Positions 9,001 through 13,638 of a stretch of DNA of 32,000 nt are shown piece by piece. The stretch's first letter is position 1, and every line of letters starts with the position of its first letter. Source of the DNA: Candidatus Altimarinota bacterium (lineage in GTDB: Bacteria; Patescibacteriota; Gracilibacteria; UBA1369); NCBI GenBank assembly GCA_041659405.1, contig JBAZYK010000005.1, forward strand, positions 1,796 to 33,795, given 5' to 3'. The translations under genes and the position numbers were made by a program. Under the pieces are notes generated by a model. That model was not told the origin of the DNA. It ran no database searches and saw only the letters and a program-made list of their open reading frames with translations.

Positions 9001-10824
9001 TGGATCATTAAAAGGTAAACCATTTCCGGTTTTAGTTTCACGTCCATCAAGGCTGATTCCGGTTTTGGCTTCTTCCGTAGTAATGGAAAGATCCTGAATG
9101 GAACTAAGTGAAATACCATTATTATCATATTTTGACATCCAGAAAGATTTTCCATTAACGGTTGCCTGTAAATTAATTCTGGATGATGGTGGCTTAACTG
9201 TAACCGTAGTGTAAACAATTCCATCAACTGGTTTTTTAGGGTTGTTTTGATCTTCCGGAGCGGCCACTTTTAATTTGACCACATAAGTTCCCGGATTTTG
9301 ATAAATACATTGACTCACAGTACCGGTTTTTTCACCACTGTTATCACCACAACTCCAGGTGAAATTATTATCCGGAATTGTATTGTTATTTGGATCAAGA
9401 CTCTTTAAAGCATCCAAATTAACAACCAGTGGAGCGTTTCCCTGGCTAATATCCGCATGAATTGCACTATAGACAAATTGCAGGTCCTTAACTTTTTCAT
9501 AAAGAGAAGACATATCTTTAACAATTTGGAGCATGGCGGCGTTATCCGGCACACTCTTAAGTGTTGGTAAAGCAGGACTTAAATCCGCTGCATGAACCAC
9601 GTCCACGAAAACCAAAGCTAATCCCTTTAAAATGGAATCCGCCTGACTGTTTAATGAAACGACATTTCCACGAATTATTTCAGATTGAAGATCATTTTTG
9701 TTTACCAATGTTTCAAGATCTCCGGTAACGTTATCAAAACTGGTCTGAATCTCGGGCAAATCGCTGGCCTGCTTGATGCGGGCGGAAAGTTCCGTTAATT
9801 GGCTATAGGCTTTAATAACAGCCTGGGCAAAATCCTGATTATTGGCGCCCATTAAACCGGTTTGTTCAACCGAACCCGGGGCCTGACTTGCCTGATCCAA
9901 AAAGGTATCCGCACCGGCTTCATTTTTAATGTCGTTGGTGTACGTACTGTAATTGGTTTTATACCAAAATTGTTCCCAATAAGTGTTTGGGTCTTTTTCA
10001 CTTGCAACCTCATCGATGGCTTTATCGGAAATCTTTAAATATTTATCATAAACCAGCAACATGTGCTGGGCTTTTTCCGATACCTGACTTAAAGATCCGG
10101 CTTTGACCAGTATGTTATTTAAAATATTCTTTTTATTCTGAAGAGTACTCTTTAATGTTTGTGGTGAGGTGATTTGTTTTTCCAAATCAACATTGATAAG
10201 CGTCAGCACATCTGTACGAATTTCGGAATAATTTTGATACGCGGTAAGAAAATCACGCGCAATCTGCTGAACGGCAATAGCGGCATAATTGAAAAATGCG
10301 CGTCGATCGGAAGTTGAAACTGTTCCGCCAGTGGCAGCTCCGTTAAGTGTATTGTTTTCTTTTCCGCTTGGAGCCTGCAAAACCGTGTTAACAATGGCGA
10401 AAGATCCCATAATAATCAAAAGACCCGTAACGGCATAGGTGATGGACTTTTTACCAACCTCGGTTTTATCTTCCTTGCCCATGGCTGTTACATAAAGCAC
10501 ACCTCCGTAAACAATTACCAAAACGGCAATTAAACCCAAAAAGCCTAGCGCAAAATTGGTTACATTACGAATGTAGTCTCGGGCAGTTGGGGCTTGCGTC
10601 AATGCCGGGGCGTAGCCGGCCGTGTCCGGAGCGGTAAGTCCGCCCTGAAAATTGGTAAAAGTGGTTTGTTCTCCACCGCCGCAAGAAAGAATGCCTTTGG
10701 TGGCATCACTTACGCTGCCGCAGAAATCAAACGCACCTGCCTGCATTGGCATGGTTAAGCTTAAAATCATGCCTAAAGTAAGCATGATTTCCTTTATTTT
10801 TGTGTTTTTCAGGATATTATTCAT
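6061..10824 (-). CDS. Giant surface protein: signal peptide, one VirB2/TrbC-like pilin module, a helical region, ~10 PKD-like domains and a C-terminal TM anchor (1587 aa)
   Basis: Signal-like N-terminus (...LSLTMPMQAGA). Pilin-type module FALGFLGLIAVLVIVYGGVLYVTAMGKEDKTEVGKKSITYAVTGLLIIMGSFAIVNTVL. PKD signatures (VKWDFGDKS, YSWDLGDGT, YIWDFEGNG, YSWDFNLAV and others). Acidic Ca-loop-like DANGDGIKDNDLD and DSNGNGIKDDDED. C-terminal VLVTIAGFGILFVSMRVLKSKKQK. Confidence 0.9.
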   Translation of the reverse strand: MNNILKNTKIKEIMLTLGMILSLTMPMQAGAFDFCGSVSDATKGILSCGGGEQTTFTNFQGGLTAPDTAGYAPALTQAPTARDYIRNVTNFALGFLGLIAVLVIVYGGVLYVTAMGKEDKTEVGKKSITYAVTGLLIIMGSFAIVNTVLQAPSGKENNTLNGAATGGTVSTSDRRAFFNYAAIAVQQIARDFLTAYQNYSEIRTDVLTLINVDLEKQITSPQTLKSTLQNKKNILNNILVKAGSLSQVSEKAQHMLLVYDKYLKISDKAIDEVASEKDPNTYWEQFWYKTNYSTYTNDIKNEAGADTFLDQASQAPGSVEQTGLMGANNQDFAQAVIKAYSQLTELSARIKQASDLPEIQTSFDNVTGDLETLVNKNDLQSEIIRGNVVSLNSQADSILKGLALVFVDVVHAADLSPALPTLKSVPDNAAMLQIVKDMSSLYEKVKDLQFVYSAIHADISQGNAPLVVNLDALKSLDPNNNTIPDNNFTWSCGDNSGEKTGTVSQCIYQNPGTYVVKLKVAAPEDQNNPKKPVDGIVYTTVTVKPPSSRINLQATVNGKSFWMSKYDNNGISLSSIQDLSITTEEAKTGISLDGRETKTGNGLPFNDPTIKNSPVAKVKWDFGDKSNTKNTVEGPPDTISQVQTVKYIKEGSYRVTLEVTDDRGITDRKIFNIVVSSIAARINVTHGNELKLNDQATFDGSASASANSQVKTYDWKIMQLATKGGNSIDLTPPEAKNVDTLKYTFKEPGNYDVSLSVSDGSNDASTVVRIHVVSKPPVAQFSFDNSDKSQPNTYILDGAKSYDPDSSEDIAYRWEFSTAPGNCTYINGKTENDCVLFFKDYSTDKNLSKIKVRLNKGKYTITLSVRDPAEIAKVTTQEQRITVDNDLDVGWGDDGKPITAKLNAGSVDVNFVMSSLNGVSYELDTGDGAKENGSITASPFTVKHTYNKSGSFIAKLMVFDNNNNQNNTIRKVFIASDNIPVAAISLTQDGNDLSDTSSTITANRKTQFVFDAGKSINIDGTGKKLNYSWDLGDGTLSTKKQVTHTFTELTPKDKPYYKITLKVTNQDDATQVSPIDEIHINVATQPPVVQGLTAIPAGTSTTTPVNVNVTANGANDPDGKIVSYRWWYYDIDNPEDQKGLQLSESPNTTIVIGTNGVEGQKKTYGFAVMATDNDNQTFNTQDGLDDSMIPKLAVTNGPNKSPVAKLNVDRTNVMVGDTVSFSSSSTDPDANGSIATYIWDFEGNGFADNVLTNDYNKPNVSYVYTKPYKDGVKVKLKVIDNNGAESISDPVMMYVDAKTAPPVAAFTSQQLDGKKIQFTNNSTADAVNGANLAKYSWDFNLAVDANGDGIKDNDLDSTEQAPTYEYPDYGVFRAKLVVADDQGNQASVINFVNIKAPVLVVTKTQQVTQQIVKPVPVVTPIQQPTQPTQTLQKLEARLTSAPAPSVTDNRIHLQGDSGTVIFNFSDSRGPIKSYIIDKNIYYDSNGNGIKDDDEDYKTTAPGTWTTQFFKSYGQDSVKLTVVDDKGTKSSVIKDIVFDVPNAPIKSQLGVDIFAGTNSNEIPGVLVTIAGFGILFVSMRVLKSKKQK

Positions 10825-13014: not shown

Positions 13015-13042
13015 ATTATACCAGACAATGGGTCTTTGTGAA
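13015..13042 (-). promoter_or_regulatory. Sigma70-type promoter with an extended -10, driving the pilin/PKD operon
   Basis: Minus strand reads TTCACA-N16-(TGG)TATAAT. The -10 is consensus with an upstream TG. It lies about 30 nt upstream of the ATG at 12984. Confidence 0.6.
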
Positions 13043-13059: not shown

Positions 13060-13244
13060 CTTGCTCACAGCTTTTTCAGGTGGTTTTCCGGAGGGAATGG
13101 CTTCTTGGCGAACGCTTCGCCTGTTCGCTGCGGCTACCATGTACGCCTCCGCGAAGGTCTCGCATCATGATGCTCGACCGGCTGCGCTCGCAATGTCGCC
13201 AAGAAGCCATTCCCTCCGGAAACTTGGAGAAACCTGTGGGCAAG
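13060..13244 (+). ncRNA. Candidate structured RNA or palindromic element: long G+C-rich hairpin with a perfect 27-bp stem (13085..13111 / 13196..13222) around an 84-nt core
   Basis: TTTCCGGAGGGAATGGCTTCTTGGCGA is exactly complementary to TCGCCAAGAAGCCATTCCCTCCGGAAA. An outer 11-bp helix pairs 13060..13070 with 13234..13244, and partial pairing bridges the two. Every non-Watson-Crick pair is G-U only when read on the + strand. The region is visibly more G+C-rich than its flanks. No known RNA family was recognised. Confidence 0.4.
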
Positions 13245-13347: not shown

Positions 13348-13638
13348 ATGGCATTTGAAAATGCTCCAAAAGATTTGCTTGTAATAAAAAAAGTCATGGA
13401 AGAAGAAGTAATGCCTGCAATTAAAGAAAAAAGGTACTTCGTCGCCCAAATGGAAATAGGAAATATCCTTGGTGGAGTAGATCAAGATCTGGTGAGAGAC
13501 GAACATTGTGGCATGGGCTTAATTGCAAGTCTAAAAGCTTTAGAAAAGGCGTTGAAAAAAGAAAAAGTTGATCAACTTGAAGGTGGAATATTAAGAGTTA
13601 GGGCTTATTTAGCCCAAGCGTTGATGTATTATCGGTAA
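13348..13638 (+). CDS. Hypothetical small soluble protein (96 aa from the first ATG)
   Basis: ORF MAFENAPKDLLVIKKVMEEEVMPAIKEKRYF...LAQALMYYR. The ORF track extends it to a TTG at 13321, but the ATG at 13348 is preferred. No recognisable motif. Confidence 0.45.
   Translation: MAFENAPKDLLVIKKVMEEEVMPAIKEKRYFVAQMEIGNILGGVDQDLVRDEHCGMGLIASLKALEKALKKEKVDQLEGGILRVRAYLAQALMYYR

Follow-up and report, generated by a model that had tools for sequence, protein, structure and literature searches.

A hairpin between a pilin-operon promoter and its neighbour gene most likely belongs to an undescribed DNA repeat family of one order of CPR bacteria

The window analysed here, a stretch of DNA of 32,000 nucleotides, carries at 13060-13244 a long hairpin that raises the question of whether it is the gene of a structured RNA or a repeat that acts as DNA. 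The initial annotation of this locus favoured selection on a + strand RNA and mentioned a MITE-like element as a second option. Its description of the structure was borne out. The 27-bp stem is formed by exact reverse complements, and the complementarity ends at the limits of the stem in both directions. The stem encloses a G+C-rich core (13112-13195; 84 nt, 63% G+C), within which CTTCGC (at 13115), GCGAAG (at 13151) and the 12-nt palindrome GCATCATGATGC (from 13162, the tip of hairpin B) were located. The 11-bp outer helix consists of 10 Watson-Crick pairs and one T-G opposition (T13065-G13239), and three further G-T oppositions (T13075-G13229, G13079-T13225 and G13080-T13224) fall in the partly paired zone between the two helices. 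The whole element is 58% G+C, compared with 38% and 33% in the 200-nt flanks. A folding energy of -113.8 kcal/mol was calculated for the + strand (z = -8.3; none of 200 shuffles was as good) and of -106.0 kcal/mol for the - strand (z = -6.9). The hairpin is real and far from chance; its parts are listed in Table 1.

The setting is also as first described, between the pilin-operon promoter and the next gene. The element starts 18 nt upstream of the -35 hexamer of this strong minus-strand promoter, and the next + strand ORF (13351-13638) begins ~100 nt past its end. This ORF, which lies between the element and secE, encodes 95 aa without a Pfam match; the same-genus genome G001, in which the pilin promoter region is directly followed by secE, contains no homologue. 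At the window copy no + strand promoter was predicted. A scan of the 32-kb window with Rfam 15, at the gathering threshold and at a relaxed E-value, gave no family at threshold, in agreement with the earlier failure to match a known RNA family; the best sub-threshold matches reached 16 bits through the long stem only.

Table 1. Parts of the hairpin element and the neighbouring promoter (positions in the window)
Feature	Position	Strand	Remark
Outer helix, 5' strand CTTGCTCACAG	13060..13070	+	pairs with 13234-13244; in other copies the sequence differs and complementarity is kept
Internal loop (semi-conserved), 5' side CTTTTTCAGGTGGT	13071..13084	+	pairs only partly with 13223-13233; TTTTTC..G..TG common to other copies and genome G020
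Long arm P1, 5' strand, 27 nt	13085..13111	+	exact reverse complement of 13196-13222
Small palindrome GGCGAACGCTTCGCC, core base	13107..13121	+	alternative local hairpin competing with the P1 base
Hairpin A, tip CTACCATGTACG	13124..13155	+	family consensus TA[A/G]CATGTAC
Hairpin B, tip CATCATGATG	13156..13179	+	TC/TC internal loop (GA/GA on the opposite strand)
Core 3' tail GGCTGCGCTCGCAATG, small hairpin C	13180..13195	+	invariant in the window's genome (G000)
Long arm P1, 3' strand, 27 nt	13196..13222	+	exact reverse complement of 13085-13111
Internal loop, 3' side CTTGGAGAAAC	13223..13233	+	TTGG.GAAA common to other copies and G020
Outer helix, 3' strand CTGTGGGCAAG	13234..13244	+	pairs with 13060-13070
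Sigma-70-like pilin-operon promoter, neighbour outside the element	13015..13042	-	TTCACA-16-TATAAT, 11/12 matches, TG

Whether the hairpin is unique was asked of the window's own genome (G000; 1.51 Mb in 21 contigs, 98.5% complete). It contains 11 full copies with 77-95% identity and four partial ones, all of them intergenic. Four of the full copies lie between divergent genes, four between convergent and two between co-directional genes, and one is at a contig end. The initial annotation had proposed copy number as the deciding check, many copies pointing to a mobile repeat and a single conserved one to an RNA gene. By that test the MITE-like reading is superior to a unique RNA gene, although the repeat does not qualify as a classical MITE: the termini are variable, a target-site duplication is lacking and no parent IS was found. 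Indeed, no target duplication was seen at the window copy, as originally noted, or at the sharply bounded copies of a second genome (G108). No conserved promoter or terminator flanks the copies, and no convincing conserved 5' flank is shared among those of G000 or of G108. No pair of copies exceeds ~95% identity, which gives no hint of very recent movement. A terminator was rejected as a candidate function on account of the four copies between divergent genes. ORFs do cross the element, but the earlier view that it has no coding potential was upheld, since subfamilies differ by a net +2 nt in hairpin B and a copy in genome G004 carries single-base insertions.

Some further observations were made in G000. 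Outside the repeats, the only core motif found in a search for a possible 'master' copy within a gene was one occurrence of the 12-mer GCATCATGATGC, at C9:1775-1786, in a gene of 536 aa that has a repeat copy 1.3 kb away; chance is the probable cause (~0.2 expected). The gene of a 503-aa secreted protein (47,384-48,895) is framed by two like-oriented copies at C8:47,192-49,328. A 13-member paralogous family of ~560-aa proteins occupies C4:71,971-82,240, partly as a tandem array, and nine other places. Its members begin with a Cys-rich, zinc-ribbon-like N terminus, the first 120 residues have no Pfam hit, and no member adjoins a hairpin repeat.

Comparison of the full copies in G000 revealed an uneven pattern of conservation. 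The central ~84 nt are near-invariant, and the GGCGAACGCTTCGCC palindrome is unchanged in all 11, whereas the arm of 27-30 bp and the outer helix vary and yet stay paired. In the alignment, 97% of cells are paired. Double changes affect 22 of 52 pairs, as against 8.8 +/- 1.8 in shuffles (0/500 as high), and this signal was destroyed when the partners were slid by 1-3 columns. In long arm P1, compensated double changes were observed at 19 of 30 pairs; by our own reading of pair types, 9 of the 21 distinct compensated changes in the arm are of the transversion type (GC to UA, UA to AU etc.). The stems of hairpin A (CG to UA, for example) and hairpin B also co-vary. Insertions and deletions are mirrored in both arms and in hairpin B, where one subfamily has mirrored 1-nt insertions. 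Compensated transversions without a wobble intermediate, together with mirrored indels, are as expected if each arm can serve as the template for its partner. Quasi-palindrome mutagenesis is a known case of such template switching on a folded strand.

The argument for a + strand RNA had rested on the mismatches, all four of which are G-U on the + strand and would be A-C on the other. It did not survive at the level of the family. A fold-based count of 94 G-U against 18 A-C was set aside as biased, G-U pairs being favoured by the folding model. In a wobble-blind test, for which the 5' arm was aligned to the reverse complement of the 3' arm in 29 copies, the isolated mismatches in solid helices comprised 12 G-T, 7 A-C and 8 transversions, with no significant asymmetry.

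To follow the hairpin beyond G000, a covariance model was built from the 11 full copies. It was positive in 10 of 36 genomes of the taxonomic family and in 26 of 151 of the order, usually with 1-7 copies each. The one same-genus genome in the set, G001, has none, and between close relatives the copy number ranges from 0 to 15. In a motif scan of 185,579 species representatives, matches were confirmed by the model only in MAGs labelled Peregrinibacteria, Peribacteria or Gracilibacteria; most matches of the pattern scan in GC-rich genomes were chance, and the family's models give false positives on any long GC-rich palindrome. One such hairpin, in Hymenobacter rubripertinctus (L098:1547-1671), is 73% G+C and scored 42.5 bits through its stem alone; it is unrelated. 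Metagenome contigs supplied six additional copies, and on viral contigs none of eight pattern matches was confirmed by the covariance model. In the literature no account was found of such repeats in Peregrinibacteria or Peribacteria. The hairpin is most likely a member of an undescribed family of hairpin-shaped DNA repeats in CPR bacteria of the Peregrinibacteria/Peribacteria type, within one order.

Across the order, only two adjacent hairpins, A and B, form the constant part of the element. Among 62 copies, the tip TA[A/G]CATGTAC of hairpin A is kept in 48 and the tip CAT(n)CATGATG of hairpin B in 44, and at least two CATG occur in 58 of the cores. The arms of the same 62 copies have unrelated sequences, yet they extend over 25-45 bp and pair almost perfectly. 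The small flanking hairpins, GGCGAACGCTTCGCC on the left and GCTGCGCTCGCA on the right, are specific to subfamilies: distant relatives have other small hairpins in place of the former, and hairpin C is kept within the family clade and absent from more distant subfamilies. The unit of G108 is ~330 nt long, with sharp ends and an extra outer inverted repeat. In this genome (e.g., L279, ~9,850-10,180) a 140-nt hairpin is nested in a second layer that has two additional side hairpins and the outer inverted repeat GCAATCTTATTCTG...CAGAATAAGATTGC.

The behaviour of the repeat at orthologous loci was examined in two congeners, G016 and G045. At one locus the flanks are collinear with ~84% identity and the core is inverted (91%). 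The core can flip because the arms are inverted repeats. An invertible promoter switch was considered and rejected: the arms lack the conservation of recombinase sites, and no promoter-like hexamers occur in the core. Upstream of murI, ~184 nt are present in G016 and missing in G045, giving a filled and an empty site. Downstream of guaA, G016 has a full copy and G045 a reduced relative, just past the guaA stop (L315, C2). The reduced relative has arms of 18 bp and a single GATCATGATC-tipped hairpin. A copy is also found downstream of guaA in G020, and the locus seems to have been occupied since before these genera split. A comparable empty-site comparison with the same-genus genome G001 was abandoned, as the spacer was too diverged for exact boundaries.

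The orientation of the copies follows GC skew. On complete or large contigs the copies proved to lie all on one strand, and their orientation was therefore compared with the local skew. In G000 all 15 copies, distributed over 8 contigs (four of each sign), have the + strand of the model on the strand with positive skew. The count depends on the size of the interval, being 13/15 at +/-3-5 kb and 15/15 at +/-10 to 40 kb; the same-strand baseline is 51% for ORFs and 63% for tRNA genes (26/41). In the other genomes skew was measured in windows of 12-20 kb. Concordance was complete in G108 (7/7, at skews of -0.26 to -0.37), G046 and G092 (3/3 each), and G045 and G082 (2/2 each). It was 3/4 in G020, where the fourth copy lies at about zero skew, and 1/3 in G016, the flipped copy included. 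Four genomes of other families (G084, G100, G139 and G065) and the few copies on metagenome contigs were at about chance. By our own tally, copies with a |skew| of at least 0.03 divide into 40 concordant and 10 discordant, and within the window's taxonomic family into 23 and 2.

Transcription of neighbouring genes does not account for this polarity. Copies between co-directional genes are without bias (6 sense, 9 antisense), and in G108 all four copies in a tandem context are antisense to their neighbours and yet concordant with skew. What the orientation correlates with is thus strand composition and not transcription. The usual rule assigns the leading-strand sequence to the G-rich strand, which is hence the lagging-strand template. 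The same is assumed here for these genomes, where it would make the G-rich strand that carries the core the lagging-strand template. The pattern fits an orientation relative to the fork that was fixed at insertion, or maintained by selection, and that later lost sharpness as old single copies flipped or were rearranged. The chromosome of G108 is itself unusual. This genome is a single contig of 998,424 nt, and the seven loci L278-L284, at 128-916 kb, were sampled in 20-kb windows that are distributed over ~80% of a complete-looking chromosome; the skew is strongly negative in all seven, without a change of sign, and most genes near the sampled copies are on the C-rich strand. Such asymmetry may reflect very unequal replichores or unidirectional replication. 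A similar disparity is reported for a Microgenomates genome (PMC7143001).

A mobilising enzyme or carrier was sought in several ways. The Y1/RAYT profile PF01797 had no match in G000, G020, G046, G047, G108, G092, G100 or G082; as a positive control, it matched in 6 of 14 known genomes. Within the family, Y1 transposase genes were found in 5 of 10 carriers and in 4 of 26 non-carriers. In G000 there was no match to TnpB (PF07282), none to Y2 (uninformative, as no control genome was matched either), and with PF00589 only two tyrosine recombinases of Xer size. No multicopy transposase-like gene was found in G000, where the multicopy genes are the 13-member zinc-ribbon family and HNH-type families, none beside a copy of the repeat; the scanned fragments had no Pfam hit. 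No neighbour gene recurs at the seven copies of G108. Among the viral contigs scanned, no phage carrier of the repeat emerged.

We give an even chance to the reading that these hairpins are non-autonomous repeats that work in single-stranded, folded form at the replication fork together with a putative partner protein. The core would be the working part, its twin CATG-tipped hairpins serving as a recognition module for a putative trans-acting protein, and the long arms would matter only as a perfect duplex, a scaffold. The arms would be kept perfect at the level of DNA, one arm being copied from the other by intrastrand template switching on the folded strand, and not by slow selection on an RNA helix. 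The element comes and goes as a unit of ~185 nt, with no target duplication. Where it has multiplied, in G000 and G108, the core strand found on the G-rich strand is the same in all copies, and from this we infer copying, insertion or selection of single-stranded DNA at the fork. Action as single-stranded DNA would be similar to that of IS200/IS605 and REP elements, but without their Y1 transposase. Some observations do not sit easily with this reading. No mobilising enzyme was found, PF01797 being absent from G000, G108, G020, G046, G092 and G100, no copies are closer than ~95%, polarity is about chance in the four genomes of other families and the few metagenome contigs, and the core's strong conservation in all copies may indicate that every one of them benefits the host.

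The principal rival is a family of small structured RNA genes, in which each copy would give a rod-like + strand RNA from its own signals, with a conserved multi-hairpin core that serves protein binding or undergoes RNase III processing. We consider this unlikely. The very stable fold, the core that is conserved across genera with covarying internal helices, the small excess of G-T over A-C on the + strand and the position of this strand on the presumed leading strand are all in its favour, and co-orientation with replication is the usual rule for highly expressed RNA genes. However, the polarity of 15/15 in G000 exceeds that of its tRNA genes, the core is flipped at an orthologous locus with the flanks in place, and close relatives differ by 0 to 15 copies. 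Near-perfect arms of 25-45 bp, in which transversions are compensated and indels mirrored, do not look like known RNA helices. On the + strand both sides of the internal loops are pyrimidines, and the stable GA/GA form would lie on the opposite strand. Neither an Rfam match nor a conserved promoter or terminator outside the hairpin was found, and the window copy has no predicted + strand promoter. The RNA-gene reading is the weaker one and a non-unique DNA repeat is preferred. The initial annotation pointed out that the perfect duplex would be a substrate of RNase III; a cleavable transcript is possible wherever a copy is read through, and would be a by-product.

Two other DNA readings differ from the preferred one in how the copies are kept or moved. 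Their small number (1-15), their intergenic positions and strict skew polarity in G000 and G108, the strong purifying selection on the core in every copy and a syntenic persistence across genera, as downstream of guaA in G016, G020 and G045 (reduced), would suit a polar site kept by the host. The twin hairpins or palindromes would then be bound by a chromosomal protein that acts according to the direction of the fork, as at a fork barrier of the Ter type, a signal for the primosome or for single-strand initiation, or the site of a recombinase, and selection, not transposition, would maintain them. This appears improbable, since most genomes of the same family, including that of the same genus, have no copies, polarity is lost in several carriers, and the copies in the complete genome G020 are not clustered; the need for long perfect arms would be left unexplained and there is no candidate binding protein. 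A conventional miniature transposon (a TIR-type MITE, for instance of the Correia kind), or else a REPIN that a RAYT transposase moves, is more doubtful still and in our estimate very unlikely. The repeat is short, non-coding, palindromic, intergenic and multicopy, its arms undergo compensatory changes as in REPINs (PMC3116915), and Y1 genes are somewhat commoner in carriers within the family. Against this, the pattern of conservation is the reverse, with variable ends and an invariant centre, there is no target duplication, the genomes with most copies have no Y1 transposase, and G000 has no multicopy transposase gene.

Comparison with known systems shows likeness in parts. In REPINs, the two ends are highly conserved and inverted, the spacer is less conserved, and changes are compensatory (PMC3116915). 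Like REPINs and REP-BIMEs, the present elements are short, non-coding intergenic hairpins with inverted halves in which compensatory changes keep the hairpin; REPINs too are thought to act as folded single-stranded DNA and show patchy, lineage-specific expansions within genomes. In contrast to REPINs, it is the centre that is invariant here, and the arms vary and are unrelated between genera, so that conserved inverted ends are lacking; no GTAG-type REP motif was seen, no RAYT gene, which in such systems usually has the repeats at its sides, was found in G000, G108, G020 or G046, and there are 1-15 copies instead of hundreds.

[quoted passage not shown] The repeat shares with these elements and with PATEs two small hairpins on one strand that are likely recognition units, the lack of a target duplication, and an orientation that goes with the direction of replication, the lagging-strand template carrying the active strand; for the repeat this bias is lost in some genomes and the template strand is deduced from skew. 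Long inverted arms are not a feature of IS200/IS605 elements, in which the hairpins take subterminal positions on either side of tnpA/tnpB, whereas those of the repeat are adjacent, central and set within a duplex of 27-45 bp, and the main carriers have no TnpA or TnpB. The IS200/IS605 arrangement of subterminal hairpins, no TIR and a conserved target of 4-5 nt 5' of the left end was not found in the repeat.

In Correia elements the terminal repeats, of 26 bp, are conserved and accompanied by a TA duplication. Those of Neisseria (CREE/NEMIS) are similarly palindromic, intergenic and 100-200 bp long, their read-through transcripts would be RNase III substrates, and they can adjoin promoters. 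Unlike in these and other TIR-type MITEs, which have the conserved TIRs of a parent IS and a target-site duplication, the termini of the present repeat are its least conserved part and no duplication was seen. Integron attC sites are also imperfect palindromes that act as a folded single strand, are strand specific and have a replication-related orientation. They keep their structure and short R''/L''-L'/R' boxes around a variable centre and stand in cassette arrays beside intI, whereas the centre is conserved here and the copies are dispersed; the 32-kb window had no Rfam hit to attC. The hairpin tips of parvovirus ITRs, those of AAV among them, are read by an HUH protein on single-stranded DNA. 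A long stem, two internal hairpins and 'flip/flop' orientations are common to both, in form only: ITRs are the ends of linear animal-virus genomes and flip through hairpin-primed replication, whereas the repeat is embedded in a bacterial chromosome, with no linked Rep-like gene and no sequence similarity. The parallel is one of resemblance, not of relationship. The repeat, then, resembles REPINs, IS200/IS605 derivatives and Correia elements in parts and fails the defining features of each; it is set apart from them because it has no conserved ends, Y1 transposase or target duplication.

A bolder reading can be put forward tentatively, as possible rather than probable. The repeat would be a new single-stranded DNA element whose twin-hairpin module, with its invariant CATG tips, is read on the lagging-strand template by a protein other than a Y1 transposase, and whose perfect self-templated arms present this module as a cruciform or long hairpin. 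It would be either a new CPR transposition system or a polar chromosome-maintenance site that copying has spread.

In the tiny genomes of CPR bacteria very few mobile elements have been recognised, and the non-coding DNA is almost unstudied. Against this background, what is new is the inversion of the core, the presence or absence of ~184 nt, an orientation that follows skew and the lack of Y1/RAYT in the many-copy carriers. The conservation of the repeat is the reverse of that in REPINs and MITEs, with arms that stay perfect while drifting around a core that flips, and its polarity is strict where it has multiplied, though known single-strand transposases are absent. The family also cautions that, with no RNA function involved, DNA can give rise to perfect stems and plentiful 'covariation'. 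If the polarity does reflect action on the lagging-strand template, it would point to a new hairpin-reading enzyme or a new replication-linked site, and the repeat would also be a ready orientation marker of replication direction in uncultured genomes.
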